Below are positions 9,314-44,246 of a DNA stretch of 64,000 nucleotides, piece after piece. The stretch comes from Giardia intestinalis (taxonomy: Eukaryota), in the NCBI GenBank assembly GCA_000002435.2, contig CM018792.1. One strand, 5' to 3'. The notes below the pieces were generated by a model. That model was not told the origin of the DNA, searched no databases, and was given only the letters and a program-made list of their open reading frames with translations. Position 1 is the stretch's first letter, and every line of letters starts with the position of its first letter. The position numbers and the translations under genes were made by a program.

Positions 9314-9326
9314 AATGTAGCAGCAA

Positions 9327-9332: not shown

Positions 9333-9333
9333 T

Positions 9334-25336: not shown

Positions 25337-25345
25337 AATTCTTTG

Positions 25346-27512: not shown

Positions 27513-30500
27513 CTAATCACCAAGATTAAGGAGTATTGCTGTTCCACGCTTGACCCATTTTGCAGGCTTATCATAGCCACTGTGGAGCCAGATATTGATA
27601 ACGAACGATGGCTGCTCACGTGATCCTGTGCGAACAGGATAGTAGTAGCACGGGCATTCATAGAATACCTGCTGGAACTTCGCCGTTTTCTTCTTCGCCT
27701 CTTGGGGCTTGAACCGGATTATTGGGAGCGTTAGATAGAGATCCATCAGGCGAGGCTCTTTTAAGTAGCCTACGTCTAAGTCCCAGTTTGCGCCCTCAAG
27801 ATAGAAGTCATGGGCATAGAACCCATCTCCAAAAGCAGGCACGCTTCTATCGTCGATGTCGCGAAGAGGGTCAAGGTACCTCGTGACTTGGAAGCCCCAT
27901 TCGAGTTGATCGATAGCTATGTTCATTCTACGTGATGCCTGCTGCTGCAACGCGGTTAGGAAGGCGGTGGGCAAACTCAGTCCACCAAGCCAGTAACTCT
28001 TTAGTGAGCCGACGTTCGCCCACTTCTGTAGTTGCTCCACCCGCTTGATGAAATCGCGTGACCATGGCGCTAGAGACTTCGTGCTCTTGTAAATGATCCC
28101 CCAGGATGCAGGAACCTTACCGACTTGCAAGTCGTTGAGCACCTCATCAAGATACGCCGACATCATCGTCAGCCCCCTGATACCTCTTTGGAGAGTCGTG
28201 AGGTCGTCACTGATAATGTTCCTGAGCCGCATGTGGCGTTCAGATTCCTGTAGCAGGACTGCCTTCAGCGGTGCAGTTTGATCATTGATGTCTGTTATTG
28301 GGGGAGGGAGGTTGGTTATTGGGGCCGGCAGACTGTGAATGATGTCCTGGGCTAGCTTGATCATACGCTCGTCTCTCGCTGACAAACCAGTGCTTTCTTT
28401 CTTCTTTTTCTTGGTTCCATCCTCGTCGCCGTCGCCGTCGTCTGCTACCTTTTTGGCCTTCTTCTCTTTCTCCTTCTTCTTATCATCCACTTCGCCAGAA
28501 GAGCTGCCGTCGATGGACTGAATCGTTAGCAAAGTCTCGACAAGGGTTAGAGACTCCACCTTCCGAGAAGCGACCTCTGAGTTACTATGTTGCCCGAAAA
28601 CAGCGGGAAGATCAACCTGGGGTAACGTGGTGATATAGTCTCGATACTCCTGCAGGCTTCCTCGTTGCGGAATGACATACTCTGAAAGCGGGGGCGCGAG
28701 CAGATATCCGTCTCGCTTGATTGCAGTCTGGCAAAACACATGGTCTATGTAGACGTTGAGAACGCGCCTATCGAGATCGTCTATGACTCGCCCTCCATAG
28801 ATAATGGAAGCGACAAGGTACTTCAAGGCGTTCCACGGAATAGTATCATACAGCTGGAGATACATGGACAAAACCTCGACAGCAGTCTCGTAATCGGATT
28901 GCGTGAACTGGTATTGGATGTTATATCCTAAACTGCCAAACTTACGACGTTCGACGAGGAGCGTGTGGTAGAACGAGATGCCGAAAAGCAGCTTCCTATA
29001 GGCGTCATCCTTCTCGTCGGGTGTCATGGAAAACATGTTTTCTTGCTCCTCTTGAGGCACATGGTACGAGTCACGGACTTGTAGTCGTTCGAGAATCGGC
29101 TTATCAATGTACGTATATAGTTGTTGAAGATTGGCACGGACACCAGAGGGCGCCTCTGTCGTGATCTTTATGCTAGTCTGAAGGACACTTATAGGGAATA
29201 CGTTGGTGGGGTCTGATGAAATCCAAAGCCTGAAGTCTTTGTGCGGCGCTGAATGGGGTATATCTTCCACTAGCTGCTCCAGGACGGAGAAGAAACTCGG
29301 AGTTAGGTGCACATTGGCAAGTAACACCCAACGGCCCTCTTTCATGGACCGCTGGACGGCCTTCACTGCAACCTCTTGCTGGCCTTGGCCCAAAGAGATC
29401 TGATCAAGTTTATCTGCGCGGCCGCATGACTTGGCAAACGCCAAGAGCTGAGAGGTGGGATCAGCGCCTTGGGAAAGGATAAATAACAGAGGAATCTGGG
29501 GGGAAGAATCTGTCAATGCCAATCCCAAGTCAAATGGCGGTGGATTAGTGTATTGAGCCCCGATACTGTTTGCAACAAAAGTATAGATCGCGTTGATAAG
29601 GCGATCAGGTCTGAAGCAGCGCAGCACAAGCATCTTCTGGAGCTCGTTTAGCTGAGTGTCCCATTCGCCAACAAGAGGCGCCTTTTCAGGCGTATCGTGG
29701 ACGTAGTAGTTAGTGTACCAGTCTTTCAGGCGCTGCTCAATGCTGGGAAGAAGGTTGCTGAAGGCAGGCATCTTATCAAGAATACAAAGGCTGTCCCACA
29801 TTGCGCCGCTAATCCAAGTGGGATCGGGGTTCGGCGGCTGCTGAGACTTGTCGAACACCTGGCCGCCCTTGAGCAGAAAGGCATACTCACTCATATTTAT
29901 CCTGCCATAACTTTCCAGGATCTTCACGCACATATGCAGAGACAAGAGAATCTTGTGCCGAGTAAACAGACCACGGCAGCAGTACTTATAAACCGCGTAA
30001 GTGTGGTAGTCGTTGAGGAGTCTAATTCGGGCGCTAACGTCCTCATGCTTCTGGCTGTTATTGATGCTGTTAATAAAGAGCTTCATGTATGCCTCCAAGC
30101 TAAATTGGTACATAGGATCTACTGAGCCCAGATCTTCGAGAACAAAGTACAGCAGCGATGCCCTCTCGCTGACAGGCTGATAAGCCCGCCGTGCCATATC
30201 AATCTTTTTCTCAGTGATCGCAGAGGTTTCAAGCTGCTTTGTAATCTCTGCAGACGTGACTTTGGAATTTTCAAGAGTGGCAATAAGCTCCTCGTCGTCG
30301 AGAAGACTGCCAGACGATGTAGCCAGGAGACGCAATATCTCATCTTCCAGAAACTGCAACTTCACCCGCATATTGGCTGTGTTGAGAACGATCTTATTTT
30401 TAGATTCCTCTAAATCTGGGCGTTCCTTTGAAACGACTGCTCCCAGCAGCTGGTCTGTTAGACCCTCCTTGATAATCGTGAAGTTGATGATACAGGCCTT

Positions 30501-33500
30501 TGCAAAGACCTCTGGTGTGTACAGAGGATTGGGGAGGCGTGTCGAAACAAATATCCGGAAGTTATCATTCCACTCTACCTCTTTATCGCGGATCTTTATG
30601 AACCGCCTACCTTGTTTCTTGATAATGTCCTTCCGTATAATGACGTCCAAGGACGGATCAATTTGCTCCCCGACGTCTTCAAGCAACACGGGTGTCCCGT
30701 ACTGTATGCACATTTCAATTTGTTTCACTGCGTCTGCATCCTTTGCATTTATGATCTTGAGGTTCTCATCTGGGTTGCTGGACTGCTTCGGTGGCTTCTT
30801 TGATTGCTGAGTACCTACCTCAAGCTTGAGCGTTCCGCCCTCACTTTCTTCGCTCTGCTGTACATTCCCTACGTCTGTCTTGCTGTACTCAGGAGCCTCA
30901 AAGAAGAGCCTCTTAATCCATCTGGTTGCTTGGCGCTGAGGATCTATGATAAGTGGCGTTCTGTTGCTCGTCGTAATAAGTATCCCGTTCTCTGCGCTGA
31001 AGTTATCCTTTGGAAGGCCAAGCAAGCTCCATTGATAGATGAGGGCCTGCCCGGCTAAGAACTCCGAGACGCTGTACTTTTCAGGGTCTGTGCACGGAAT
31101 CATCCACACATTGACAGCGTTGACCCACTCGGTCAGAACATATGAGCGGAACCGCCCAGTGAGTCCGCCAGCGTAAGATATGAAGGCAGCCGCTGTCAAG
31201 CAGTCTCCGGGCAGCGATGACAGATTGTAGGTTAGTGTCTGGATCTTCTTCGTCCACCGCTCCTTTTCGCCTCCAAGACCACTTATAAGCTTTTCGGCGC
31301 GGTTGAGCTTTAGGGCAAGTTCCTCGGCAAGCCTTCGAAGCCGGTCGCGTTCAGCAACCGCAGAGGCATGCTCACTCTTGAGTTTTTCGACGGCGGCAGC
31401 AATGCGAGCAAGCTCATCTTGCGCTGCCTGAAGTGCACGCTCCTTTTCGGCCAACTTATTCTTGGCGTCCTCCAAGGCGTCTTGTTTTGGTTTAACAACT
31501 TTGTAGACGCATGCGTACTCATAAACAGCACGAACCCATAGACAAAGGGACTTCCCAGCCACAGAAACACGCCCGATTGCGTCGACAGTGTAGTTCTTGT
31601 CCATGTAGTACCGCTTAACCTTCTTGAGCATCGTCTCAGGGATATTGTTAACATCATAGTTAATCAGCTTCTCCAAAAACTGACCTTCTCCCATAACTAT
31701 TTTAGCAGACTTATAGTCTGTATCGCGATTAAGAAGCGTCATAACACCGGCCAGAACCAGTTTAACAAGCTCTGGAGGCTGTGTAAACGAGCGAATTTCG
31801 TAGATATCCTTAGAGTCAAGACTCTCCAAGGCCTTCTGAGCAGCCTCCAGGGCAGGAGTCGCCTCGTCTAGGTCCTTCTGGGCCTCTTTCATCTGTCCCA
31901 TAAGGACCTCCTTTTCTTTCATAAGCTTCTCCGAGTCGATCTGGATTAGCCTCTGTTTCTCATCTATCTCACGCTGCTGAACAGCTATATTCGCAAGCAG
32001 ATTCTCACAGTTCTCCTGAGACTCCAGAACAACCACTTTCGTCGTTTCCAACTCCTTCCGCATCTCCTCGACAGTCTCGCGCGTCTCCATGAGCTTATTG
32101 ATACCGCCCTTAAGTTTGTTTATATCATTGGTAATCTTGTGGCGCTGCTGAAGAAGGATATCTCTATATAATCGGACAAGGGACAGGTATCCTGCTGGAG
32201 TAACGTGGACCTTGCGTTTAGAAGCCAGCTCCATTTCCAGGGCTGTCTTGTGGGATACGTCGTGTGCCGTAACAAAGGCTTTCGCCAGCTTCCTGCGGAG
32301 CGACATGCGTGTCGGGTCTGTAGTGTCTGACTCGTCTCTGCTGCTGTTTTGAGAACTTCCTCCTCGCGCAGTAGTTGCAGGTGGCTGAGCCTTTTCTTCA
32401 ACGATATTTCCATTCTCATCGATCTCCAATACGCGCTGCATGTTCTCAAATTCATCCAATTCCTTGAAATCTGAGAGGAAGTAGAGCGCGACTTCCTCTA
32501 ACGCCGAAGTGGGCCAGTCTCCGAAAAGATCGAGGGTACACGAGCCAACCAATGACGGAAACATGCGCAGACGGCGCCGAAACACCTCTCCTGATGGTGA
32601 GAAAGCTAAAACTATGTGAAGGTTGACCTTCGATCTCTGCAGGAGCATCTGATAACAATTCTCCATTGTCTCGCTCATGCCATACTGCTTGCATACAGGA
32701 GACAAAGCGTCGCGTATCTGGCTCATTTCGTCTTGCGTAAACAGACCAGGTATCTCTCCAGAAGACAATATTGAATTGACATCCTCTAGAAACGCCTCGT
32801 CGGCGATTTGCTGGTCGGAAAGGAGGAAGCACACTGCTTGGTTATCAACGCCGGCCATGAGAAAGAGCTTCTTCATATCTTCGCGGAATTGGGCAACCCC
32901 GTAGTTCTTTGCTAGGTCTATAGAAAAGACAGTTTGCCGCTGGAGATGCGCTGCAAGCCGTGTCATACTACTGCGTCCTGATCCACCTGATCCAATCAGC
33001 AGTGCGTGACCAGACGGAGAGGAGAGAATTCTGGCAATCCGACAGCAATGATCAATCGCGTCATTGAAGAGAACAAGATTCATGGATGCTGCACCGGAGT
33101 TGTTGTATTCTCTGAGCTTTTCCTCCATGAAGGTCTTGAGCATCTTCTTGCTGGTTATCTCCTGGAAGACGCCTACTTCTGTGTCAGGATCCTGATTGTT
33201 AGGAATTGTCGAGATCCACTTTGTCTCCAAGAAGTCTACAAATAGCGGAGGCTGCTTTTCATAGAACACACGGCTGAGGGTTGTATTGAAATGGTTTCCG
33301 AGCTTTGAGCTGAGCAGGTCAAAGAACCAGGGGCGGTCCGTTTCAACCAGCCGGTCGTGATAAACGCGGAGGCACTCGTGTGTCCAAAGCCGAACAATGG
33401 AGTCCTGCGTTGTTTGCTGCTGCGGGTCGGCCTTCATAAGGCTCAAGAAGAACTTGGACAAGTCACGTAAATTGAACACGTAATGCGGCTTCAGTGGTGT

Positions 33501-36500
33501 CGGCAGAAGAGAAGAAGAGACCTGAGCGTAGATCTCTATGCCAGACGTCACTAGGGTATCAACCATCTGCCTTATTTGCTCGTCAAAGCCAAGTGCAAAA
33601 TGGGCGTTCAGGAGGGTGTGGAAGATGCCCTTCAGGACATTTTCACTGGGTGAATCTATTCCAAAGATGCTAAACAAGGAGAGGTTACGCGCACAGATGG
33701 GGTTCCGCCCGCCACCGGGGACAGCCATAGCAGGTACAATATCCACGTCTAGAATAGAGGACAAATAGTACTTATCCTTCTTCTGTCTGTACATTGTCCC
33801 GCGATCCATAACCTGACGCATAAACTCCAGAGGCGGCTGGGAACCGAATGCATCGCGCTGTGGAAGGTTATAGTCATCGAAGAAGGCCAAAAGCCGCTTA
33901 CCACCGACCGGTCCCATGGAGGTCGTCGAGCGCGGCTGCAATCGAGATTCCAAGACAGCCTGAAGGCGCTGCGGAGATGTTTGCGCAGAAAGACCTAGCG
34001 ACACTATGTTGTACTTTCCAATATTTCCACCAACAAACATCTTCTCCAGATTTGTGGCCCCATCGCAGGCTACTTGGAGAGTGGAATAGTACTCATAGGC
34101 AGAGTTTGTGATCAGGCCCTGCTCGAGTGCGGGAATGATGATGTTTTTAAAGATAGACGTCTTCCCAGTTCCGCTGACTCCATAGAGCATTACCCCGTAC
34201 GAAGTGGTGTAGCTATTGGCAGGCCCGACTGTGTGGTAGTTCCTGATCTCGATAGACTCTATCGCTGCGTGAAGGATTGCTGTTTTAACCACGTATTCGG
34301 TGCGGAGAGTATCCACCGTGGGAACAAGAGTTGAGTACAGGGGAATGGCTGGATTGGGTCGCCACCCTCTCGGCAAGACCTCGTTCCAGTGTACCCAGCT
34401 GCGACGGCCGTGGTCCACCTTATAATCCCAAACGGTGTCTGCCACTGGAAGAGCACCCTCAACTTCACGGATAATCAAGTCGAAGTGTTGTCTGCCGTCC
34501 GAATCCAGACTGCCACCGAACGCCCAGACCAGTGAGAAGACGATATACATTTCAACAACGCGTTGTACCATCCCATCATTATCAAAAATGTCAATCCACA
34601 CACCATTATGGGGCTGCGCAAGGGCCTCAAACATGTTGAAGAATGTCCGCATCATGGAGTATACAGAATAGTCGATGGACTGGGTCAGGATGCCTTGCTC
34701 TTTTGCATCGAACACCTTATTAAATAGCTTCATTCCATAACCCTCCAGAGTATCTATTATCAACTGGTTAGTCTCCGCTGGTACATCATGCTTTATGAGC
34801 TCCTTATAGTTGGAACTATCGCCCTCGTTTTCCTTGACCTTGGCTATTGCTCGCTCCAAATTAAACTGAAACGTCCCATAGCGCTCTCTAACCAGCTCAT
34901 TCCTTGTCCTCGAGCGATAAAACTTGTCTATTCCGTGCCTATAGAGCCATCTCCACTCTATGTCCGAGAGATCACAGTAAATCATTCCTGCACGGGAGAC
35001 AGTAGCAGGAGAGGCTTGTGAGAGATCATTTGCCTCAAACAAGAAGTTGACGGCCTTAGGGAACGAGATACGCTCACCGTTGACAAGTGTTAGTATCTTT
35101 GAATCGTCAAGCACTGAGTTGAGGGACTCTATCCACAGTGTGTCCACAGGGCCATCGAAAAGCGTAGTGTAGTAGGTCTTATTGTTGGGATCATTACCCA
35201 GTGCTGAGCTGCTGCGGATACAATTGGAGACAACGCCATCAACCCATTCTTGGGTCGCCATGTCAAACGCCCCATACAGCTGGTTGATGTTGAGGGCTTT
35301 GGGATTTATGTAGTCTATCACAACGTCGTAGGCGTCATCGTATGGGGTGCGGACCTTCTCATCATAGACTGGCTCCACCAACACGTCACCGACGGTGGTG
35401 TCCTTCTGATCTCGTGCGGGAGTAAAGGCATACGCACCTGTGTTAGAGTCATATTTGTAGACATCCTTCATGTAATGGATACATTTAGCTAGGTAAACTG
35501 TTTCTTGTATATGCTTAGACGTTCCTGTTTCGTCTTTGTACAACTTTTGCAGAAGGTAAAGGTATGGGGAGACAGCCTTGAATGGAATTTCCTGTGAGTC
35601 GACGACGTGTTTGATCATTATGCAATAGGGGTTCTTAAGAAAGGCCTTGGCCTGTACAGCCCCCTTGGGCTGAGTTGCTTCAAGATACTCTGTATATGCT
35701 TTCTTAGCGCGAGCGCGAGCAGCCGCAAGCACCTCGTAACAGGTTGTTTTGCCGGAGCCAGAATTCCCAATGACCATAACTCCGTGCCGGGACTCTTGTG
35801 TTTCTAGAAACTGGAAGATCTTGTCGCGCTGCTTAGTGTTGATATGAATGTTCCGTACTGCCATCTCGATATCCACGCCTGCTTCCACAAGCCCGTACGA
35901 AACGTCCTGCAGCTCTACACCCGGAAAGAGATCGCTAATTAGGCCTGTGAATAGAAGTGTGTCCTGGCGAACAAGTTTCGGCTCCGTGCTGTACTTGAGG
36001 CTCCTCATCATGATCATATCCTCCGGATACTCTGGATGGCTGCGCTTCAACATGCCTGCGGTCAGAAGAACCGCCTTCATTGCGCGCAGACCGAAGTCAT
36101 AGTGGCCTTGCTTGGAAAGCTGAAGGTTAGAAAGTTCAAATAGAGTCTTTGCCTTCATTCCTAAGGACTTGGCTGTGGCGAAGCCCTCGGAAAGGATCAT
36201 GATTTCACAAATGAGTTGCATCTGTGGCACACACATTGAAATGGGGCGGAAAAGGGCCTTGAGGTTGTCAGGCAGCTCCGAGCGGCCGGCATAGCCTGGA
36301 TTCATGGTTATGAAAACGCCGCACGTGCGCTTTAAACTGATTTCACGTCCCTCAAAAACAAATCTAGACGCATTTTTAGAGATAGCTGCAAGGATGGTTC
36401 CGACTTGCTGTGCAACAACTGAGAGAACATCGACGTAGAGACGATTGAACTCGTCAAAGCAGCTCCAGGCGCCTGTCTGGCAAAGACCCGAAAACATCCG

Positions 36501-39500
36501 ACCCAAAGACTTGTAGTCCAGACCCTCGGAGCAGTTGAAGATGAGACATTGGATGCTTATGGCCTTGGCAAGGTCCTTCGTGGTCTCGGTTTTTCCAGTA
36601 CCAGCAGGTCCTTGTGGCGCACCGCCCTTACGCAACTGTAGAGCAGAGGTCAGAGTAACGTAGCACCGATCTGTCAGAGGTGTGCAAACAAGTCGGCCAG
36701 TGTTTGCCAGGTACTCGTACTGATAGGCAAGAATTGATGTGGTTTGGCGAATGACTATACACATAGTCATGTCCTCGCGCTTCTCCTCCTTCTTTTTTTT
36801 CTTGTTGCTCGGCTGGTCAAAGTCACTGCCCACCAACTCCAGGTAATACTTTAGTTGGCTGAACCACTCAAAGCATTGGTCGTTGTAAACCTTAGCATGG
36901 TAGAGCTCTTCTATTATGTCACGATTATGGACTTCTAGGGTAATGTGGGAACGCACCTTGTTCTGAATAAGGGAGCCCTGGAAGTTGCATGGGTACGGCG
37001 CTGCTTGTGGCACTACAAACTCCGACCGTTGCTTGCGGACGATTTCAGTTAGCTTGCTGAGGAAGATCATAGAGCGTTTGCGGGAGTTTTTAAGGTTACG
37101 CCGAACAGTGTCAAGGCAGTCCTGGAACCCAGGTGTTTGCATGAGTTGTTGCATAAGAAAGGCCTCGTCATCCAATTCTTCCTGAGGCTCCTCTGCTGCT
37201 GTCTCGTCTCCACCATCAAGGCCATCCTCTCCAGGTCTGTCGAAAGTATCTTTTTTATTCCTCAATGTGGGAGCTTCTAGCTTGGTTTTGTCAAGGAACT
37301 TTGCCCCGCTAGAGAGTGCGTGTGCAACGTGCTGCGTCCATCTGATCTGGTTGCTTGCTATAGTAAGTTGACCCGGCCACTTTCCAAGCAATATCTCTAA
37401 CGGCAGCTTTCCGTTGACCATGTCCAAGAGGCAACGCGGCGCCATGTCTTTTAGAGTTGCGCGCATACAATCTTCCACCTGTCCGAGCCAGACTTCAACG
37501 GGAACTCCTGTGCAGATGATATTTCGAAGAAATGGCACCAACTCTCCGCAGTCCCCCCTCATGCCCGAAGCAATAACGACAGTATTTGGCTTAAGCTGGC
37601 TGACGTCGGTGTACTGACTGATATTTGTCCCAGCTTTGTCTGTGACGTCAAGAGACTTCATTGCATCAAAGCACTTGCGTATGTGTGGCTGCACAGCAAG
37701 TGGATTCTTCGACTGAGCCAAAATCTCAAGCAACTCGTCGTTGGAAAGGAAGTAGAACCGTGGGAAGGAAACGCGCTTTCGCTCAAGATAATCCTCCAAC
37801 CTCTTTTGGATCTGATCGAGCGTCTGAGAAATCTCTAGCATTGATTTAATAATCACAGAGGATCGTCGTAGATTAATCTTAGAGCCGATATTTGTTTGCA
37901 GCAGCTCTAGAATATCGAAACAAACGAGGACCCGTTTCTCACGGTGAATGCGTGTCATGGACTTCTTCCAAAGTTCATTGGCCTCGTCGAAAAGCTGGGA
38001 CTCTGCCGGAAGCTGCTTACGGATATCATCAGAGGCGGCAAAAATGGTCTCCAAGTACATCCAGGCACGCTGAGAGTTCAGGATAATCTCGATTCCTTCA
38101 GAGACCTGGGAGAGCACCGCGTCCCACGTGTCCAGCTCCTGCTCAAATGCCCGTGCATACTTGGATCCCTTCATTGTTGATATGGACAAGGAGTGCTCCT
38201 CTAAGTTTGCAAAAAGGTCCTCCAGGCCCTTCAAAATGTAATAGGTGGGTTTGTTTCGTACATCCCCGCCGTACGACTTGCTCTGATACGTTGCAACATT
38301 AAGCTCAAGCATGTGCCACTTCTTGACGATGTCACGCATTCCCTCTTCAATGAAGAGCTCCTGCGTGGCGCCGCTAGATATCGCAGCAATGGATTCAGCG
38401 TGCACCATGAGTCCGGAACTTATGATAAAATGTAGAGTGAAGTGCATCGAGTCCGGATCAATGATGACTTTGTCGTAGGCTTCATTGTTCACGGCAGAGG
38501 AGGAAAGCCCAGCCGATGTTGTGGAAGAATCAAGGTTGACCCCGCTTGAGACAAGGTTAGATAGTTTGGCAATTGGCTCTCCTCCTGAGGCAGGTCCCAG
38601 AATATTGGGAGTGTCTTTCGGGATCAGCAGGTAGATGCCAGTTATTTCTGAGATCTGTGCCCAATGGCGCGGACGCATAGCGGTGTTTTTGAGGTCCTGG
38701 CTAACAGCGGGAACAGGTCGGTACTCCTCAAGCTGCAGAGCAAGAGTCTTCGAAACAGGAAATGCTTTTGTATCGTTGGGAAGCTTTCTTACCGAGATTT
38801 GGTTTTTCTTAATTTCAGCATCGAGCTGCTCGTGATCAATGTGGCGCATCTGAGTTCGCTTCACGCTGCTGTAGTAATTGTTCCAAGCGGAAGCAATAGA
38901 CCATATGCTCTTGAGCTGCTTGATCATTCCTTGTATTATGCTCAGCTCTTTTACGTCCTTGAATTCAGCTTGGAAAATCCTCAACCCATGCTCAACCTGT
39001 TCTTTCAGCTGGAGCAAGTCGTCATACTTGTTCTCAAAGCGATGAAGTATCCGCTCCGCCTGCTGTATGTCCTCGGCCGTCAGAGCAACACCCTCGATTG
39101 CCTTGGTTACAACATTGGGAGAATATGGTCCTTCGCTCTGGACTAACGTCTTCAGATCCATACACGCTTGGGTGAGATTGGCCTGGTCTCTCGTAACCTG
39201 GTCTCTGAATTTGGTTCGTTCCACAGCCACCTTCAATTGCGCAGAGTCGATGGCGCCCTTCGCCTTTGTAATAAGATCTGTAAGACCGTTTAAGATAACA
39301 AGCTTATCTGCAGACACGTTCGCTTCTAAGGTCATAAGCAGTTGGAACTTCTGCCCTATAGGTTGGCAGCGCTCATTAATGCTGCCAATAAGTACCTTTG
39401 CACTGTCTAGGTTTGTAATCTGACGCTGGAGGTCATCCAGGTCGCGAGACTCTTTGTCCAAGAGCAGGATCATCTCGTTAAGATCGTTAGTGACCAATTT

Positions 39501-42500
39501 GAGCTCGGAAAACGCCTTCTCTTGGAGAACGTCAATAAGATAACTCTGGAAGTCGGCGCTCTTGCGCGCAAGTTCTGTCTTGAGATTGGTACAGTCAAGC
39601 TGGATGACAGACAAGTGTATGTGTGACTCCTCTTGCTGCAGGTCAGCTTCTAAGCGCTGGAAGCTTTTGAGCGTATCTTCATAGACAGACAGAGGCTGCG
39701 ATAAGAGGTTATGGCGTATTTCGTACCCTCGCATATCCTCCAGCCAAAGCTCGGAATAGCGAGCAAAGTTCCCGGCGTAGGTTGTCGCTTGCTTGCAAAC
39801 CGCATCTAAGCTATAGCGTATCCAGGCTATGGCATGCCCCAGTGCATTGGTGTTGATTCCCTTGGCCTGCTGGTCTGTAGCCTCATCGGGACAGCTGCTG
39901 GGCGAATAGACTGTGACGGTATTAGCTGGCTGATCCAAAATGTTAATTGCAAATCTAAAGAGATCTAGATACGGAATTCGAACCTTGTATTCTGGCATCT
40001 TCAGAGACGCCCATTCATCTATGTCCGCACGCAGCACGGCTATCTCAGCAGGAGATGTTTGCAGGCCCTCTCTCTCCCGCTGATCTATCTTCTCCTGAAA
40101 GATACGTTCTGCCTCTGCAATCCGCATTTCCCGCAAACGGCGCTCCTTCGCTGAAAGGGATATGTGGAAGCGTTCTATACGTTCAACGATACCCAGAATG
40201 GCGGATCTCAGGACAGTGACAACAGCGCCATTCAGCTCGTCAACAGATGGGCTAATAATGGGATGCTTAGTGAGAACCAAGAAGAGTTTAAAGATCGGGA
40301 TGGCCTCTGGCTTATAGGCAGACATGTCTAACGGCCTGGAACGACGTCCAGTCATGATGAAGGCCAGCTCCTCAAAGCTCTGGACAAAAAGAGCGAGCAG
40401 CGACACCTCAATCCGGGATTCTATTTGAGAAACAAACTGGATCCACTCTGCTTGTACTGAAGGGCCATCTTTCCGGAAGATATTATAGCAGCTTACAAGA
40501 GAATCTTCCGCTAGGTTAAGGGTCTCAAAGAATTGGCGTGTGGCTGAATCCAAAGTAACACGTTGGTTAGACACAAATTCAGAAAGCTGAAGTGGCCCAC
40601 TAGTGGACGATCTCTCACCAAGTTGGGCGTCGTCGTCATCTGCAAGGCTTTGCTCCATCGATTGGGCATGGCTCAAGGAACTGGATGACGATGTATCCGC
40701 GCAAAGCTTGCAATTGATGAGAGAAATGGAGCTTAGAGACCTGATGCAGTCCTCGATAGTCTTCCGTTTGTTGTGGAATAGGCACGTCAGTGCAAACGCT
40801 TCAATAGCCAGCTTTCGCGCCTTCATAATGAACTGGAGAAGACCACGGGTATTCCAGCCTATTTTTGTCCACGCATCCGAGAGATAGTTAGACAGCTCGG
40901 AGAGGCGCGAGCGGAACAAAAGGATCTCATCAGGCGCTAGGTTATCCACAACACGATTGACCTCAGAGACACAGAGAGATACAAGCTCCTTTTTCTGATG
41001 GAGCGCAGTTCGGCGCGAGTACAGTTGCTTGGCGTTTTCAGGGATGTCGTATCCTAACTTGCTCCAGTACATGACTTCCTGCAAGCAGTTCTTGATAGAG
41101 ACAGGGTACTGAAGGCTAACCCGATTCAGAAGAAGGATTGTGTTCGTCGTCTCCTCGTGGGGCTCGTCCTTTGCTTGGGGTGCTTTCTTAGCTTTGTCAC
41201 TTGATGTCCCCATGTCCAGGGCGTTAAGTGCCGAGTCGACGTTTAGTTTTTCCTTAAGAGCATCTGGAATGGGCGTGAGAGCCATGATCGGCTTCTCTAG
41301 CTCTGCCTCGAAATTGTACGACTTGATGCTCGAAACCCATTCGCGGAAGTTTCTGTCTATGTAGCTTTCAAAAAGAGCTTTAGTTTTGGCGTAAATCTCA
41401 ATGGCCTCGCGTTCGTCGCGGGAGTAGTTGACTAATAGTTCGACTGCCTGCCTGCTATCATTGGTTCCAACACCAGATGCCGCGGCTGCAGCATTCCTCC
41501 GCTCCCTGTTTAGGAGTTCTGAGGCAACTTGGCGAGCACCTGGGGAAAGCCATATGACAAGGGCATCCCAGTCACGCTCCAAAGCGCTGAGTAACCGTTT
41601 AATATTCACCGAATTCATAGCGATGCGCGGCTGGAATGAAGCAAATGTCAACACCGTAGAGTGTGCCACCGTCGTCGCCATACTGGCCGAGGCCTGGTCA
41701 ACGTCCAGTTTGCGCTCGGGTTGAGCATGCTCGTCTGTGCCACTGAGTGCCACCTTTGCTGATGCCTTTGCAGTTCCAGAATTAGCTCCACTGACAGCCT
41801 TCGTCGACCTGGCTTTTGTCCCCAGTGGGGCTTTTGCAGCTGCCAGCTTGGTAGTCCTTTTAGTGTCCCTAGCCTCTGACGGTTTGCTTTCAACATTGGT
41901 AGTGTTAGACGCTGTCCTTAAAAGCTCAAACTGGCTTTTTATCTGTCCTGCCTTCTCAATGAAAAGGCGCACAGTATCGAGAGTTTTCTTTTCCACAGAG
42001 CGTCTGAACGCTGGGCGACTAGATAAATGGCTAAACGCCTCAAGGATAGCGCAGGTTTCAACAACGGAGTGGCTAGATTGGGAAAAGTTTGTTGAGATAA
42101 TGTTCTCAGTGAAGATAGTGAGCGCCTTGATCCCCTGACGGTAGGCTGCGACAGACTCGTGCCACGAGTTTGATCGCACGTCAAAGTGATTGTATGGAAC
42201 ACGAGAAAGAAGGGCGAGATGGCGTAAGAATGTGCGCTGAATCTCCCTAAAGGACCGCCGGATCATTTGGCCTAAACTTCCTCCAAATTTAGGAAGAAGA
42301 TACTCAGCAGAGTTAATGTCTGCAAGTGATGCCGTGTTAAGGTTATCGTAAGGTGGCTTTCCAATCTGAGAGAGGAGACTCATGTCGACTGTCAATCCAT
42401 TAGGAAGCTCTATTGTTTCTGTTTTAGGTGTGGCAGAGAACGTGTTCTCCTTAATATGTTGCTTCCCATTTTGCTCTGCACCCGCATTGGAATTAGTGTG

Positions 42501-44246
42501 GCGCTGTAAGAATCCATCCTTCGAGGCAATTAACGTGTCTGCACGAGAAAACTGGAGCCTATCCTGACATATTTCGCACAGGTCAATGCATCTCTGGCCA
42601 AACGCCTCTGCAGAGGAGACCACTGAAGAATCGAAGGACCACTCCATGAACGGCTGGTCAGGTCTTTGTTTCCGCAGAAGCAGGCAATAGACCGTTTTGT
42701 GATACTGTGGAGGAATATGGTTAAGTGCAGCAGGGTTATCGTAGCTATCCTCTGTCCCTTCGCCTTCTTCAGTTCTCTCATCGGGCTCGGGAACTGGCTC
42801 CGGCTCAGGAGGAGGCAGCGCGCCCATCTGTGCCTCTGCCTCAATGGCTGCCTTTTTGGCCGTTTCTATTTCTGTAACAAGGTCCTCGTGCTCCTTTGTA
42901 TTGTCACACGCCTGCTTATATAGCAATATCCACGAATTGATGATTGCATTGCATCCAATAAGATCGTGAATAGACCGGAGACTGTCCCCGACAAAGATAT
43001 CATACAGGCTAACCATGGATACCAGGCTATTAACCACAAGCGACGAGACACGCCGCAACAGCCCAGACAAGTTAGCCACGTTAGAATAGTATGCTGACTG
43101 GGCACTTATTAGCTTTATTTGGCAGAGAAGATCCGGAAGAACTGATGCGATATCGTTTAGATCTTTTGTGGTCATCAGGGATCTACAGGCGCCCTCAATA
43201 GTCCCCAAAAACTTTAGGTTTGACATGCTTTCATTTGTGCGCTCCTTGATAACTGCAGCAAGCTCGTCGAAGGTGTCAGCGTACTGTGAGTGTGCCAGCT
43301 TCAAGGTCTCAATTACATTACACAGCGCCCTTGAGCGTAGCTGGTCCAGAACCGCTGTGAGGTCTGCAGCCCTAGTCTTCCAGTAACACAGCTCGTCCAG
43401 AGGGTCCTGCAAGCGAGGAAACGGGTGATACTTCGTTGCACAGGCATTGAGCCCTCGTGCTGCCTTTTTGCTAAACTGAGTGATGGGCCGAGATGCATCA
43501 TCAGTCTTTGGAGCCGTCCCTGGCGTTATTGCTTGTTGAGCAGTCATTGAGGTCCGTGCCATGGAGTGCACACCCGAAAGCAGCTCTTTGATTTGGCGTG
43601 TCCAATGGACAACGAGAGATTCTAACCGAGGTATGAGCTCTTTGTTGCGCGAGCCCTCTACTGGGTCTAGATCCTCAAAGCTAGGGATATACAGAACGGT
43701 TCTCCCCTTTGCAAGATAAGTCGTCTCAGTCAAGCTGGCCATATACCGCTCAATTTGGCTTAGAAAGTCGTCTCTAACACTAGATGGCCAAGTGTTGAAG
43801 GAACGAATCCAGGGAGAGTAAACAGAATTCATGGCATTCAGTAAGGACTCTGTGACGCAAGGAGACACCGTCCCCATCTGAATGTGATTTCTCCAGTCGG
43901 TGAAGTCGGCCGGCATTGTTTCAAGTCGGACGAAGTAGTAGATACTGAAGGCTAGCGTCGGCTGAGAAGTGTCCGACTTTGCCGCTGAAAAGTCTGTTGT
44001 ATTGGATAGAGAGTGAACAACCTCGAGTTTGTGTAGTTTCTCATTGAACCATAAAAAGAGTGAGCAGTGAGCGGAGTCTGTCGGATTGGTAAACTCTAAA
44101 AACAGCTCGTGGTATGGATCCATGTCCGTGAGCTCGATCCTATAGCCCCCGGAGGCACGCATGATATCGAGAATGAAATACAAGAACTCCTGGTCGACCG
44201 GCACCAAGTTTGTGCCCTCGACGCCACCACTCATGACCGAGTCCAT
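27513..44246 (-). CDS. dynein heavy chain, 5577 aa, single uninterrupted ORF
   Basis: AAA1 P-loop GPAGTGKTETTKDLAKA with CFDEFNR. AAA2 GNSGSGKTT. AAA3 GVSGTGKTS. AAA4 LLIGSGGSGRSSMTRLAAH. Long coiled-coil stalk region. Conserved C-terminal domain. N-terminal tail of about 2500 aa. Lys-rich insertions (NKKKKKEEK; KKEKEKKAKK...KKKKK). Confidence 0.95.
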   Translation of the reverse strand: MDSVMSGGVEGTNLVPVDQEFLYFILDIMRASGGYRIELTDMDPYHELFLEFTNPTDSAHCSLFLWFNEKLHKLEVVHSLSNTTDFSAAKSDTSQPTLAFSIYYFVRLETMPADFTDWRNHIQMGTVSPCVTESLLNAMNSVYSPWIRSFNTWPSSVRDDFLSQIERYMASLTETTYLAKGRTVLYIPSFEDLDPVEGSRNKELIPRLESLVVHWTRQIKELLSGVHSMARTSMTAQQAITPGTAPKTDDASRPITQFSKKAARGLNACATKYHPFPRLQDPLDELCYWKTRAADLTAVLDQLRSRALCNVIETLKLAHSQYADTFDELAAVIKERTNESMSNLKFLGTIEGACRSLMTTKDLNDIASVLPDLLCQIKLISAQSAYYSNVANLSGLLRRVSSLVVNSLVSMVSLYDIFVGDSLRSIHDLIGCNAIINSWILLYKQACDNTKEHEDLVTEIETAKKAAIEAEAQMGALPPPEPEPVPEPDERTEEGEGTEDSYDNPAALNHIPPQYHKTVYCLLLRKQRPDQPFMEWSFDSSVVSSAEAFGQRCIDLCEICQDRLQFSRADTLIASKDGFLQRHTNSNAGAEQNGKQHIKENTFSATPKTETIELPNGLTVDMSLLSQIGKPPYDNLNTASLADINSAEYLLPKFGGSLGQMIRRSFREIQRTFLRHLALLSRVPYNHFDVRSNSWHESVAAYRQGIKALTIFTENIISTNFSQSSHSVVETCAILEAFSHLSSRPAFRRSVEKKTLDTVRLFIEKAGQIKSQFELLRTASNTTNVESKPSEARDTKRTTKLAAAKAPLGTKARSTKAVSGANSGTAKASAKVALSGTDEHAQPERKLDVDQASASMATTVAHSTVLTFASFQPRIAMNSVNIKRLLSALERDWDALVIWLSPGARQVASELLNRERRNAAAAASGVGTNDSRQAVELLVNYSRDEREAIEIYAKTKALFESYIDRNFREWVSSIKSYNFEAELEKPIMALTPIPDALKEKLNVDSALNALDMGTSSDKAKKAPQAKDEPHEETTNTILLLNRVSLQYPVSIKNCLQEVMYWSKLGYDIPENAKQLYSRRTALHQKKELVSLCVSEVNRVVDNLAPDEILLFRSRLSELSNYLSDAWTKIGWNTRGLLQFIMKARKLAIEAFALTCLFHNKRKTIEDCIRSLSSISLINCKLCADTSSSSSLSHAQSMEQSLADDDDAQLGERSSTSGPLQLSEFVSNQRVTLDSATRQFFETLNLAEDSLVSCYNIFRKDGPSVQAEWIQFVSQIESRIEVSLLALFVQSFEELAFIMTGRRSRPLDMSAYKPEAIPIFKLFLVLTKHPIISPSVDELNGAVVTVLRSAILGIVERIERFHISLSAKERRLREMRIAEAERIFQEKIDQREREGLQTSPAEIAVLRADIDEWASLKMPEYKVRIPYLDLFRFAINILDQPANTVTVYSPSSCPDEATDQQAKGINTNALGHAIAWIRYSLDAVCKQATTYAGNFARYSELWLEDMRGYEIRHNLLSQPLSVYEDTLKSFQRLEADLQQEESHIHLSVIQLDCTNLKTELARKSADFQSYLIDVLQEKAFSELKLVTNDLNEMILLLDKESRDLDDLQRQITNLDSAKVLIGSINERCQPIGQKFQLLMTLEANVSADKLVILNGLTDLITKAKGAIDSAQLKVAVERTKFRDQVTRDQANLTQACMDLKTLVQSEGPYSPNVVTKAIEGVALTAEDIQQAERILHRFENKYDDLLQLKEQVEHGLRIFQAEFKDVKELSIIQGMIKQLKSIWSIASAWNNYYSSVKRTQMRHIDHEQLDAEIKKNQISVRKLPNDTKAFPVSKTLALQLEEYRPVPAVSQDLKNTAMRPRHWAQISEITGIYLLIPKDTPNILGPASGGEPIAKLSNLVSSGVNLDSSTTSAGLSSSAVNNEAYDKVIIDPDSMHFTLHFIISSGLMVHAESIAAISSGATQELFIEEGMRDIVKKWHMLELNVATYQSKSYGGDVRNKPTYYILKGLEDLFANLEEHSLSISTMKGSKYARAFEQELDTWDAVLSQVSEGIEIILNSQRAWMYLETIFAASDDIRKQLPAESQLFDEANELWKKSMTRIHREKRVLVCFDILELLQTNIGSKINLRRSSVIIKSMLEISQTLDQIQKRLEDYLERKRVSFPRFYFLSNDELLEILAQSKNPLAVQPHIRKCFDAMKSLDVTDKAGTNISQYTDVSQLKPNTVVIASGMRGDCGELVPFLRNIICTGVPVEVWLGQVEDCMRATLKDMAPRCLLDMVNGKLPLEILLGKWPGQLTIASNQIRWTQHVAHALSSGAKFLDKTKLEAPTLRNKKDTFDRPGEDGLDGGDETAAEEPQEELDDEAFLMQQLMQTPGFQDCLDTVRRNLKNSRKRSMIFLSKLTEIVRKQRSEFVVPQAAPYPCNFQGSLIQNKVRSHITLEVHNRDIIEELYHAKVYNDQCFEWFSQLKYYLELVGSDFDQPSNKKKKKEEKREDMTMCIVIRQTTSILAYQYEYLANTGRLVCTPLTDRCYVTLTSALQLRKGGAPQGPAGTGKTETTKDLAKAISIQCLIFNCSEGLDYKSLGRMFSGLCQTGAWSCFDEFNRLYVDVLSVVAQQVGTILAAISKNASRFVFEGREISLKRTCGVFITMNPGYAGRSELPDNLKALFRPISMCVPQMQLICEIMILSEGFATAKSLGMKAKTLFELSNLQLSKQGHYDFGLRAMKAVLLTAGMLKRSHPEYPEDMIMMRSLKYSTEPKLVRQDTLLFTGLISDLFPGVELQDVSYGLVEAGVDIEMAVRNIHINTKQRDKIFQFLETQESRHGVMVIGNSGSGKTTCYEVLAAARARAKKAYTEYLEATQPKGAVQAKAFLKNPYCIMIKHVVDSQEIPFKAVSPYLYLLQKLYKDETGTSKHIQETVYLAKCIHYMKDVYKYDSNTGAYAFTPARDQKDTTVGDVLVEPVYDEKVRTPYDDAYDVVIDYINPKALNINQLYGAFDMATQEWVDGVVSNCIRSSSALGNDPNNKTYYTTLFDGPVDTLWIESLNSVLDDSKILTLVNGERISFPKAVNFLFEANDLSQASPATVSRAGMIYCDLSDIEWRWLYRHGIDKFYRSRTRNELVRERYGTFQFNLERAIAKVKENEGDSSNYKELIKHDVPAETNQLIIDTLEGYGMKLFNKVFDAKEQGILTQSIDYSVYSMMRTFFNMFEALAQPHNGVWIDIFDNDGMVQRVVEMYIVFSLVWAFGGSLDSDGRQHFDLIIREVEGALPVADTVWDYKVDHGRRSWVHWNEVLPRGWRPNPAIPLYSTLVPTVDTLRTEYVVKTAILHAAIESIEIRNYHTVGPANSYTTSYGVMLYGVSGTGKTSIFKNIIIPALEQGLITNSAYEYYSTLQVACDGATNLEKMFVGGNIGKYNIVSLGLSAQTSPQRLQAVLESRLQPRSTTSMGPVGGKRLLAFFDDYNLPQRDAFGSQPPLEFMRQVMDRGTMYRQKKDKYYLSSILDVDIVPAMAVPGGGRNPICARNLSLFSIFGIDSPSENVLKGIFHTLLNAHFALGFDEQIRQMVDTLVTSGIEIYAQVSSSLLPTPLKPHYVFNLRDLSKFFLSLMKADPQQQTTQDSIVRLWTHECLRVYHDRLVETDRPWFFDLLSSKLGNHFNTTLSRVFYEKQPPLFVDFLETKWISTIPNNQDPDTEVGVFQEITSKKMLKTFMEEKLREYNNSGAASMNLVLFNDAIDHCCRIARILSSPSGHALLIGSGGSGRSSMTRLAAHLQRQTVFSIDLAKNYGVAQFREDMKKLFLMAGVDNQAVCFLLSDQQIADEAFLEDVNSILSSGEIPGLFTQDEMSQIRDALSPVCKQYGMSETMENCYQMLLQRSKVNLHIVLAFSPSGEVFRRRLRMFPSLVGSCTLDLFGDWPTSALEEVALYFLSDFKELDEFENMQRVLEIDENGNIVEEKAQPPATTARGGSSQNSSRDESDTTDPTRMSLRRKLAKAFVTAHDVSHKTALEMELASKRKVHVTPAGYLSLVRLYRDILLQQRHKITNDINKLKGGINKLMETRETVEEMRKELETTKVVVLESQENCENLLANIAVQQREIDEKQRLIQIDSEKLMKEKEVLMGQMKEAQKDLDEATPALEAAQKALESLDSKDIYEIRSFTQPPELVKLVLAGVMTLLNRDTDYKSAKIVMGEGQFLEKLINYDVNNIPETMLKKVKRYYMDKNYTVDAIGRVSVAGKSLCLWVRAVYEYACVYKVVKPKQDALEDAKNKLAEKERALQAAQDELARIAAAVEKLKSEHASAVAERDRLRRLAEELALKLNRAEKLISGLGGEKERWTKKIQTLTYNLSSLPGDCLTAAAFISYAGGLTGRFRSYVLTEWVNAVNVWMIPCTDPEKYSVSEFLAGQALIYQWSLLGLPKDNFSAENGILITTSNRTPLIIDPQRQATRWIKRLFFEAPEYSKTDVGNVQQSEESEGGTLKLEVGTQQSKKPPKQSSNPDENLKIINAKDADAVKQIEMCIQYGTPVLLEDVGEQIDPSLDVIIRKDIIKKQGRRFIKIRDKEVEWNDNFRIFVSTRLPNPLYTPEVFAKACIINFTIIKEGLTDQLLGAVVSKERPDLEESKNKIVLNTANMRVKLQFLEDEILRLLATSSGSLLDDEELIATLENSKVTSAEITKQLETSAITEKKIDMARRAYQPVSERASLLYFVLEDLGSVDPMYQFSLEAYMKLFINSINNSQKHEDVSARIRLLNDYHTYAVYKYCCRGLFTRHKILLSLHMCVKILESYGRINMSEYAFLLKGGQVFDKSQQPPNPDPTWISGAMWDSLCILDKMPAFSNLLPSIEQRLKDWYTNYYVHDTPEKAPLVGEWDTQLNELQKMLVLRCFRPDRLINAIYTFVANSIGAQYTNPPPFDLGLALTDSSPQIPLLFILSQGADPTSQLLAFAKSCGRADKLDQISLGQGQQEVAVKAVQRSMKEGRWVLLANVHLTPSFFSVLEQLVEDIPHSAPHKDFRLWISSDPTNVFPISVLQTSIKITTEAPSGVRANLQQLYTYIDKPILERLQVRDSYHVPQEEQENMFSMTPDEKDDAYRKLLFGISFYHTLLVERRKFGSLGYNIQYQFTQSDYETAVEVLSMYLQLYDTIPWNALKYLVASIIYGGRVIDDLDRRVLNVYIDHVFCQTAIKRDGYLLAPPLSEYVIPQRGSLQEYRDYITTLPQVDLPAVFGQHSNSEVASRKVESLTLVETLLTIQSIDGSSSGEVDDKKKEKEKKAKKVADDGDGDEDGTKKKKKESTGLSARDERMIKLAQDIIHSLPAPITNLPPPITDINDQTAPLKAVLLQESERHMRLRNIISDDLTTLQRGIRGLTMMSAYLDEVLNDLQVGKVPASWGIIYKSTKSLAPWSRDFIKRVEQLQKWANVGSLKSYWLGGLSLPTAFLTALQQQASRRMNIAIDQLEWGFQVTRYLDPLRDIDDRSVPAFGDGFYAHDFYLEGANWDLDVGYLKEPRLMDLYLTLPIIRFKPQEAKKKTAKFQQVFYECPCYYYPVRTGSREQPSFVINIWLHSGYDKPAKWVKRGTAILLNLGD

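Follow-up and report, generated by a model that had tools for sequence, protein, structure and literature searches.

The window, a stretch of 64,000 nucleotides of Giardia intestinalis DNA (contig CM018792.1 of assembly GCA_000002435.2), carries on its minus strand a dynein heavy chain coding sequence (27513..44246) of 5577 codons followed by a TAG stop. The encoded protein is identical to XP_001708358.1, "Dynein heavy chain", of Giardia lamblia ATCC 50803 (Giardia intestinalis WB). Translation from the ATG start, checked against the list of open reading frames, encounters no internal stop, and with 3 stop codons among the 64 the chance of a frame of 5577 codons staying open is about e^-268. 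An earlier note on this DNA, made from the letters alone, had described one continuous 5577-aa dynein heavy chain ORF, which is borne out by the uninterrupted frame and by the full set of domains recognized by Pfam; Giardia, which it had guessed as the source, is correct, and the strand had been left unmentioned there. The first ATG (M1, 44244..44246, minus strand) is preceded one codon upstream by an in-frame TAA and lies in an A-rich context (gtaaaaaATG), as is typical of Giardia initiators. A second ATG (M5, 44232-44234, minus strand) is the start chosen in the newer 5573-aa RefSeq model. On reading the sequence past the stop codon we found, at a distance of 15 nt, the heptamer AGTGAAC (27491..27497, minus strand), which fits the Giardia polyadenylation signal consensus AGTRAAY. 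The same heptamer overlaps the TGA stop of a convergent plus-strand gene ending at 27499. The gene is already annotated as "Dynein heavy chain" in RefSeq and GiardiaDB and Giardia heavy chains are included in two published dynein phylogenies; a literature search by accession and candidate IDs returned no paper on this particular gene.

The protein features the complete architecture of the dynein heavy chain superfamily, with a linker, six AAA+ modules, a stalk carrying the microtubule-binding domain and a C-terminal domain. The Pfam families DHC_N1, DHC_N2, AAA_6, AAA_5, AAA_7, AAA_8, MT, AAA_9, Dynein_heavy (D6), AAA_lid_11 and Dynein_C are all recognized far above their cut-offs, those from DHC_N2 through Dynein_C in canonical order with E-values of 5.5e-17 to 3.3e-144. 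All features are encoded on the minus strand. The tail (38457..44246, aa 1-1930), in which DHC_N1 homology begins at aa 207, is followed by the linker (37440..38456, aa 1931-2269, Pfam DHC_N2) and by AAA1 (35745..36725, aa 2508-2834, Pfam AAA_6). AAA1 is the main hydrolytic site and, with an intact Walker A motif (GPAGTGKT, aa 2546) and Walker B motif (CFDEFNR, aa 2596), is predicted to be catalytically competent. Every motif quoted in the earlier note was found in the translation: GPAGTGKTETTKDLAKA at aa 2546 in AAA1 together with the CFDEFNR motif, GNSGSGKTT at aa 2827 in AAA2, GVSGTGKTS at aa 3356 in AAA3 and LLIGSGGSGRSS at aa 3749 in AAA4, as well as the low-complexity motifs NKKKKKEEK (aa 2481), KKEKEKKAKK (aa 5257) and DGDGDEDG (aa 5270). 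The Pfam match of AAA3 (AAA_7; 33648..34019, aa 3410-3533) lies downstream of its P-loop (GVSGTGKT, aa 3356), and AAA4 (AAA_8; 32157..33083, aa 3722-4030) has a P-loop GSGGSGRS at about aa 3752 and contains an insertion at aa 3921-3979. The coiled-coil stalk with the microtubule-binding domain (Pfam MT; 31131..32117, aa 4044-4372) sits between AAA4 and AAA5, as in canonical heavy chains. AAA5 (AAA_9; 30243..31034, aa 4405-4668) and AAA6 (Dynein_heavy D6 and AAA_lid_11; 28581..29501, aa 4916-5222) contain insertions at aa 4448-4495 and aa 5055-5076, respectively, and a Lys/Asp-rich insertion (aa 5261-5292) precedes the C-terminal domain (Dynein_C; 27528..28400, aa 5283-5573).

A frame of this length might stem from collapsed paralogs or from two adjacent genes fused by a sequencing error, and the unusual length, though nothing else, speaks for such an origin. 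Full-length copies of 5573-5577 aa however recur across independently assembled genomes of four named isolates from assemblages A, B and E, amongst them P15 (EFO63728.1, 5577 aa), GS (EES99125.1, 5574 aa) and DH (ESU38703.1, 5577 aa), as well as a 5573-aa copy on a 2.76 Mb contig of the chromosome-scale WB assembly. Many Logan assemblies also carry the full-length ORF, on contigs of up to 2.76 Mb. Indels between the assemblages are nearly absent, the domains follow one another as in one canonical heavy chain, and no direct or tandem repeats were found within the 16.7 kb of the ORF. As the full-length copies occur in independent assemblies of all three assemblages, the ORF is neither an assembly artefact nor a pair of genes, and we regard an artefactual origin as next to impossible. 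Together with the lack of repeats, these copies exclude both a separate N-terminal gene and collapsed paralogs, the two conditions under which the earlier note would have withdrawn its reading.

In order to place the protein within the dynein heavy chain family, its motor and its tail were compared separately with chains of known structure. Both point to IAD-1beta, the class that comprises DNAH2 and Chlamydomonas DHC10 and that is seldom duplicated and, as a rule, found wherever there are cilia (PMC5100056, PMC2239267). In Kollmar's nomenclature the class goes by the further name DHC6. Among the 60 motor matches listed by phmmer against the PDB, DNAH2 (2335 and 2319 bits), Chlamydomonas 1-beta (2261 bits) and two trypanosomatid chains (2083 and 2041 bits) score above all chains of other classes (1877 bits at most), and for the tail the 1-beta and DNAH2 chains reach 499, 494 and 489 bits compared to 204 bits for I1 1-alpha. 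The top five matches are thus the same set for motor and tail, they represent three eukaryotic supergroups, and their margin over the next class exceeds 160 bits for the motor and 100 bits for the tail. No Giardia chain is among the PDB matches listed. Both the motor and the class-specific tail are accordingly those of IAD-1beta, an assignment that was made against relatives outside Giardia, the similarity searches having returned no Giardia paralogs.

A neighbor-joining tree of the motor agrees with this placement, with the DNAH2 sequences as nearest neighbors and a clade bootstrap of 91/100 in what is a simple tree, sparsely sampled for the other classes by labelled sequences and rooted on one labelled cytoplasmic sequence. 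Within the IAD-1beta clade the Giardia chain is basal and sits on a long branch, and the clade without the protein P0171 has a support of 67/100; this could be taken to mean that the chain belongs elsewhere, to I1 1-alpha, a single-headed inner arm dynein, an outer arm dynein, IFT dynein or cytoplasmic dynein. Against such a placement stand the five best PDB matches of both motor and tail, and also the fact that the tail, the region that sets which complex a heavy chain joins and that harbors heavy-chain dimerization and IC/LC binding, fits 1-beta from aa 93 on. The chain does not belong to cytoplasmic dynein 1 or IFT dynein 2: cytoplasmic chains score about 121-123 bits with the tail query, by way of the shared linker only, they are missing among the 60 motor matches listed, and the tree places the labelled cytoplasmic outgroup far off. 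Membership in another class is therefore, in our estimation, highly unlikely. The earlier note had considered the class not decidable by eye, which may hold for inspection by eye; with the best motor and tail scores and the clade in the tree, however, the chain is readily placed, and the class is decidable as IAD-1beta. Very probably, then, the ORF is the Giardia intestinalis ortholog of the 1-beta heavy chain of the two-headed inner-arm dynein I1/f, encoded by a single intact gene, with an excess of about 1,150 residues made up of dispersed insertions.

The closest characterized counterparts are Chlamydomonas DHC10 (PDB 8glv chain Co) and human/mammalian DNAH2 (8j07 k9, 9fqr D0), which give the best tail and motor scores, share the domain order and have tails that are co-linear with that of the Giardia chain from the N-terminus on. 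Direct sequence comparison shows the same Walker A and B motifs in AAA1 and an AAA4 P-loop of the G-x-G-G-S-G-R type. Within the alignable blocks, about 24-39% of the tail residues and about 32-42% of those in the AAA2 segment are identical. The Giardia chain differs in being 1,064-1,153 residues longer (5577 aa compared to 4513, 4427 and 4424 aa) and in carrying about 30 lineage-specific insertions. Two trypanosomatid chains from axoneme structures, 9e5c 5j (4674 aa) and 9y6s 7I (4755 aa), both entered under the title 'Dynein heavy chain, putative', rank fourth and fifth for motor and tail, above every other class, and are likely to be the IAD-1beta orthologs of another excavate lineage, judging from their sequence scores. 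The Giardia chain exceeds them by 800-900 aa, and they are themselves somewhat longer than the animal orthologs. At the sites examined, a protein of similar length, P0092 (4665 aa), is free of the Giardia insertions. Among named relatives, the closest one found is a fragment from Kipferlia bialata (P0251, 622 aa) with 41% identity over the linker, as would suit a fornicate related to the diplomonads.

The AAA1 P-loop of the Giardia chain lies at aa 2546, compared to aa 1734-2066 in full-length relatives of the same class, so that the earlier note was roughly right in giving about 1900 for canonical heavy chains. It had attributed the difference to some 600 extra N-terminal residues, either a tail extension or a fused domain, an attribution for which the position of the P-loop is the argument and which does not hold up on alignment. 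The N-terminus is co-linear with those of the relatives: aa 133 of the Giardia chain pairs with aa 129 of Chlamydomonas 1-beta and aa 100 with aa 133 of DNAH2, and the conserved blocks of the tail (aa 93-232, 281-455, 646-779 and 1045-1300) follow one another as in the I1 1-beta/DNAH2 tails. The offset of the P-loop builds up stepwise at no fewer than 8 internal sites, and the motor past the P-loop is likewise longer than in the relatives, by about 310-445 aa. A Pfam scan of aa 1-2800 (E ≤ 0.01) found no domain other than those of dynein families, and the candidate of a fused tail domain was dropped. An extension or fusion at the N-terminus is thus very improbable. The excess is instead distributed over about 30 internal insertions, contributing about 495 aa in the tail and about 492 aa, half of it, in the motor; the roughly 1,150 extra residues are there because about 30 insertions of 10-120 residues arose in the Giardia lineage. 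On these alignments, the insertions are acquisitions of the Giardia lineage, and there is neither an N-terminal extension nor a fused foreign domain.

The insertions can be followed along the minus strand from the N-terminus. One in the tail covers 38 aa (43404..43517, aa 244-281), where a gap of 49-55 aa in Giardia compares to one of 4-10 aa in the relatives. It is followed by an acidic and Pro-rich insertion of about 85 aa (42642..42896, aa 451-535), by one of about 80 aa (42300..42539, aa 570-649) and by the largest expansion of the tail, of about 150 aa (41451..41915, aa 778-932), which includes a low-complexity stretch rich in Ser, Thr, Ala and Lys (aa 778-866) and whose residues 801-925 are covered by none of the 147 re-aligned tail matches. 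A further 56 aa are inserted directly before the linker (38460..38627, aa 1874-1929), and an acidic insertion occupies part of the interval between linker and AAA1 (37104..37301, aa 2316-2381). In AAA2, 117 aa (35340..35690, aa 2853-2969) separate the helix after Walker A (GNSGSGKT, aa 2827) from the next strand; this segment is missing from all 15 aligned dyneins, which were drawn from matches of several classes. In the AlphaFold2 model it has pLDDT values of 32-52 compared to 80-90 for the AAA2 core, values that do not distinguish a folded from a disordered segment, since the underlying alignment consists of one sequence at this insertion. Most of the insertions are polar or of low complexity and probably form surface loops.

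Since few, short introns exist in Giardia, we considered whether some of the insertions might be unrecognized in-frame introns that are spliced from the mRNA. A look-alike of the conserved 3' intron motif does occur within one of them (34229-34239, in the insertion at aa 3325-3346), though it is mismatched at the R of CTRAC, the element that we take to be the branch-point region, and reading about 200 nt further upstream, to 34440, revealed no GTATGT 5' splice site. A search for the 3' motif gave no significant hit in the ORF, as matches occur at chance level (2 found, 2.2 expected). In addition, all insertions are open and in frame, with amino-acid sequence and length conserved between assemblages, and the transcriptome-wide splice survey of WB, in the part consulted, names a dynein light chain and no heavy-chain cis-intron (PMC10711314). 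Intronic origin of any of the insertions thus appears very doubtful, and translated insertions remain the preferred reading. The earlier note's statement that at least two Giardia heavy chains are split among loci and joined by trans-splicing has support in the literature, for two chains other than this one (PMC5100056, PMC10711314). These are the outer-arm chains GilDHC3 and GilDHC4, which belong to the same genome, protein superfamily and organelle as the 5577-aa chain and are encoded at two and four separate loci and trans-spliced or assembled post-translationally (PMC5100056, PMC10711314). In contrast, the chain described here is encoded by one continuous ORF and is not a split gene. As we have seen no report of split heavy chains beyond these two, the unsplit gene is probably the norm in Giardia.

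Homologs of the insertions were sought in large sequence collections. A HMMER search with aa 1-1200 against 1.84 billion representatives gave 1045 matches, and of the 147 that were re-aligned nearly none extends over the segments inserted in the tail; a word-indexed search with the AAA2 insertion returned only a Giardia fragment of 100% identity. The Kipferlia fragment, which spans one insertion site only, lacks the insertion before the linker, with 1 aa at this position compared to 57 aa in Giardia. With a view to dating the insertions, orthologs from the diplomonads G. muris and Spironucleus were sought as well; similarity searches returned none, nor did they ever return Giardia's own cluster, which is in the collection, so that G. 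muris may sit hidden in the same 50% cluster. A comparison of assemblages A and B gives an identity of 96.7% for the core and of 85.0% for the insertions, with 6 gap positions among 987 residues, and insertion length is retained throughout assemblages A, B and E, at about 85% identity. The insertions are therefore translated and tolerated, and may be functional; candidates for such a contribution include the 117-aa AAA2 insertion, the Ser/Thr/Lys-rich 150-aa tail expansion and the charged insertions near AAA1 and the C-terminal domain. That the Giardia-specific insertions as such are functional additions, for example docking or phospho-regulatory surfaces, rather than neutral loop expansions seems unlikely to us.

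The axonemal position and the partners of the 5577-aa chain are inferred from orthology only. As in other members of the family, the tail would associate with the 1-alpha heavy chain as well as the complex of IC140/IC138 intermediate chains and light chains, and it would be anchored to the A-tubule where each 96-nm repeat of the axoneme has its proximal end. Hydrolysis of ATP in AAA1 would swing the linker while the stalk binds the neighboring B-tubule, and the resulting regulated microtubule sliding would shape the waveform of Giardia's eight flagella. The I1-beta ortholog might have acquired a non-axonemal role, additional or different, in which the insertions would serve as new interaction surfaces. 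An argument for such a role is that Giardia has no cytoplasmic dynein 1 (PMC5100056), and it has a parallel in Ostreococcus, which keeps IAD-1alpha and IAD-1beta without an axoneme, read as a second function of the complex (PMC2239267); the retention of the insertions across assemblages would also be in line with it. Insertions of this kind are, however, compatible with neutral expansion of surface loops, and the chain has retained every core feature of an axonemal I1 heavy chain in motor and tail, so that we consider a non-axonemal role improbable and favor an axonemal I1/f heavy chain.

The gene and its kind are both known, and the locus has little import beyond annotation. Its generic annotation can be sharpened to that of an I1/f 1-beta (DNAH2-type) inner-arm heavy chain, and the impression of a long N-terminal tail goes back to lineage-specific insertions dispersed along the chain, of which half lie within the motor ring. 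The insertions themselves are a minor detail, apparently undescribed so far, and their list names segments to seek as extra densities in the 96-nm repeat of Giardia. If they are functional, they could adapt I1 dynein to four differently beating flagellar pairs and to their long cytoplasmic axoneme segments, or could even permit a non-axonemal task in a cell without cytoplasmic dynein 1. Should some of them be functional, the chain would illustrate, on a modest scale, how a deeply conserved motor can be tuned within one lineage.

The dynein gene occupies positions 27513-44246 of the minus strand (a strand left out of the earlier note) and appears in a mechanical ORF list as a single open frame of 5577 aa with an ATG start and zero internal stops in its translation. 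A motif search of the translation located GPAGTGKTETTKDLAKA of AAA1 at aa 2546 and CFDEFNR, also of AAA1, at aa 2596, followed by GNSGSGKTT of AAA2 (aa 2827), GVSGTGKTS of AAA3 (aa 3356) and LLIGSGGSGRSS of AAA4 (aa 3749), as well as Lys-rich and Asp/Gly-rich runs at aa 2481 and 5257-5283. The Pfam scan returned a complete heavy chain architecture, with DHC_N1 from aa 207 and DHC_N2 at aa 1931-2269, downstream of which follow in order AAA_6, AAA_5, AAA_7, AAA_8, the MT stalk, AAA_9, D6, AAA_lid_11 and Dynein_C. The single giant ORF described in the earlier note, with all the motifs quoted there, is thus borne out. By exact-sequence look-up the protein is XP_001708358.1, "Dynein heavy chain [Giardia lamblia ATCC 50803]", and the ORFs around it likewise belong to Giardia WB (Qa-SNARE 1, GL50803_17255 and tRNA-dihydrouridine synthase 1). 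The gene is already annotated in public databases, and the Giardia dyneins have been classified previously.

All PDB chains, among them complete sets for human and Chlamydomonas axonemal dyneins and chains from two trypanosomatid axoneme structures, were searched with the motor (aa 2401-5577) as query. The motor scored highest against two chains of DNAH2 (2335 and 2319 bits) and the Chlamydomonas "Dynein-1-beta heavy chain, flagellar inner arm I1 complex" (2261 bits); next came a pair from trypanosomatids, labelled simply "Dynein heavy chain, putative" (2083 and 2041 bits); the top chain of any other class reached 1877 bits, DNAH10 (I1 alpha) 1720-1700 bits and the outer-arm chains about 1500 bits. 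The tail (aa 1-2500 as query) separates the classes better than the motor, with 499, 494 and 489 bits for 1-beta/DNAH2, 315 and 308 for the trypanosomatid chains and 204 for I1 1-alpha. In a neighbour-joining tree of 33 sequences over 2431 well-occupied motor columns, the Giardia dynein branches basally within the DNAH2/1-beta clade, and, measured by distance, its closest neighbours are without exception DNAH2; bootstrap support for the clade is 91/100 with Giardia and one protist protein (P0171) included and 67/100 without the latter. Taken together, motor scores, tail scores and tree identify the gene, at the level of sequence, as the IAD-1beta heavy chain, the equivalent of DNAH2 and Chlamydomonas DHC10. 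IAD-1beta corresponds to class DHC6 of Kollmar 2016 (PMC5100056).

The extra length does not form the N-terminal extension proposed earlier, as the N-terminus is co-linear with both references: Giardia aa 133-229 align with aa 129-225 of Chlamydomonas 1-beta and aa 100-229 with aa 133-263 of DNAH2. When the protein was aligned by MAFFT with nine orthologues of the DNAH2/1-beta type, runs of 10 aa or more present in Giardia alone added up to 987 residues, 495 in the tail (aa 244-281, 451-535, 570-649, 778-866, 897-932, 1181-1221, 1366-1435 and 1874-1929) and 492 in the motor (aa 2316-2381, 2409-2424, 2479-2494, 2851-2979 in AAA2, 3105-3157, 3325-3346, 3379-3407, 3921-3979, 4448-4495, 5055-5076 and 5261-5292). 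The same length steps appear in block-wise HMMER alignments against eight relatives, where, for example, gaps of 49-55, 72-82 and 57-63 aa in Giardia face 4-10, 0-7 and 1-7 aa, respectively; the exception at the last site is a 4665-aa relative (P0092), with 138 aa against 74. The P-loop of AAA1 is found at aa 2546 in Giardia and at 1734-2066 in full-length relatives, and 3031 residues follow it in Giardia compared with 2586-2721 in these relatives, so that the Giardia tail-plus-linker is about 480-810 aa and the motor about 310-445 aa longer. The biggest motor insertion measures exactly 117 aa (2853-2969). It separates the helix after the Walker A of AAA2 from the strand that comes next, and at this site none of the 15 aligned dyneins, taken from hits of several classes, has any residue.

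Full-length copies in the 90%-identity cluster come from isolate P15 (5577 aa), GS (5574 aa), DH (5577 aa), the more recent WB assembly at chromosome scale (5573 aa; contig of 2.76 Mb) and many independent Logan assemblies. Indels are nearly absent between Giardia assemblages, and no tandem or direct repeats were found in the 16.7-kb ORF. Together these observations exclude both scenarios that the earlier note had raised against its own reading, a separate N-terminal gene and collapsed paralogues.

Polar and charged residues are enriched in most insertions, while hydrophobic content is ordinary in that of AAA2 and in a few more. No relative of the insertions was detected: with aa 1-1200 as query, HMMER run without filters against 1.84 billion representative proteins gave 1045 hits, and coverage among the 147 of them that were re-aligned was about zero over aa 233-280, 451-530, 576-648 and 776-1040; for the AAA2 insertion, the sole match of a word-indexed search was a 100%-identical Giardia fragment. 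Among the matches, the nearest named relative comes from the fornicate Kipferlia bialata; this fragment of 622 aa, with 41% identity, has 1 residue opposite the 57-residue Giardia gap that contains the 56-aa pre-linker insertion. A EukProt tail fragment (P0089), whose gene-naming style is that of the Kipferlia entry, lacks the tail insertions as well. The insertions are therefore younger than the split from Kipferlia-like fornicates, at least the pre-linker one, which is testable with a named sequence. The similarity searches missed the Giardia cluster itself (39 members in the collection) and other Giardia and diplomonad dyneins, so missing G. muris or Spironucleus matches are no sign of missing orthologues. 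Identity between assemblages A and B amounts to 96.7% for the core and 85.0% for the insertions, whose 987 residues contain 6 gap positions; the insertions thus change about four times faster than the core and, judged from this comparison, are clearly translated and length-constrained. Their being introns was considered and rejected: the Giardia 3' motif CTRACACACAG occurs at chance level (2 matches, 2.2 expected), its sole in-ORF match, CTACCACACAG at 34229-34239 (-) within the insertion at aa 3325-3346, has one mismatch, in the CTRAC element, and GTATGT is absent from the roughly 200 nt read upstream. AlphaFold2 modelling of aa 2790-3200 gave pLDDT 80-90 for the AAA2 core and 32-52 for the insertion, which a single sequence covered.

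The gene boundaries are ordinary and Giardia-style. An in-frame TAA stands one codon 5' of the ATG in an A-rich context, which is typical of Giardia initiators, and AGTGAAC, which fits the Giardia polyadenylation consensus AGTRAAY, lies at 27491-27497 (-), 15 nt past the TAG stop. The sole annotation uncertainty is the start codon (44232-44246, minus strand), with M1 giving the 5577 aa of the older model and the present ORF and M5 the 5573 aa of the newer RefSeq XP_001708358.2. One Logan assembly, from a Giardia that is more divergent (P0055), keeps the frame open for another 27 codons upstream (5604 aa), where WB has the TAA before M1. A convergent AAA-family ATPase gene (25343-27499, plus strand; Pfam AAA, E 5.6e-34) has its TGA stop at 27497-27499, with only 13 nt separating it from that of the dynein. 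The dynein AGTGAAC overlaps this TGA, and the 3' ends of both genes must therefore overlap as antisense transcripts.

Among the other ORFs, a 734-aa frame at 17403-19607 (-) matches nucleoporin Nup84/Nup107 (PF04121, E 1.9e-12, aa 116-242) and is a possible scaffold nucleoporin; few recognisable nuclear-pore components are known in Giardia. Pfam assignments with no obvious tie to the dynein gene comprise a WD40 beta-propeller protein (53267-54811), a phosphoglucomutase/phosphomannomutase (12054-14021), a class-3 lipase domain protein (4977-7574), a protein with Trm732-type C-terminal TPR repeats (50587-53217) and an RNase T-type exonuclease (7577-9469), all on the minus strand. ORFs at 45988-48603 (+, 871 aa), 57896-59785 (+, 629 aa) and 1413-3554 (-, 713 aa) matched no Pfam family at E <= 1e-4 and are probably Giardia-specific hypothetical proteins. 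Two antisense ORFs inside the dynein coding sequence, 30214-30810 (+, 198 aa) and 38664-39146 (+, 160 aa), are most likely chance frames.

The overall interpretation of the earlier note holds in part. Its contrast with split heavy chains is factually right, in that the outer-arm genes GilDHC3 and GilDHC4 are divided over two and four loci and trans-spliced (PMC5100056, PMC10711314), unlike the present single ORF; its N-terminal extension does not stand. In the literature examined these two are the only heavy chains reported as split, so a single-ORF heavy chain in Giardia is unremarkable. The gene is the already known I1/f 1-beta dynein heavy chain of Giardia, made larger by internal insertions specific to its lineage. 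No paper on the gene itself and no description of distributed insertions as the account of its size were found in the literature; this account is a minor descriptive point.

The protein carries, as read from its sequence, all elements of a working dynein motor plus a 1-beta-type tail. By analogy with I1/f dynein of Chlamydomonas and mammals, where it is well studied, the tail would dimerise with the 1-alpha heavy chain and bind the complex of IC140/IC138 and light chains, and the whole assembly would dock on the A-tubule, proximally in every 96-nm repeat; turnover of ATP at AAA1 would swing the linker while the stalk microtubule-binding domain engages the adjacent B-tubule, and the chief role would be that of a waveform regulator. 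The insertions are most likely surface loops and disordered linkers. As phosphorylated, isoform-specific disordered loops are reported in other axonemal heavy chains (bioRxiv 10.1101/2025.03.10.642390), a regulatory role for some of them is conceivable. Cytoplasmic dynein 1 is absent from Giardia (PMC5100056), and Ostreococcus, an alga without flagella, keeps the I1 pair (PMC2239267); the insertions could therefore also, though with low probability, support an additional role for this dynein.
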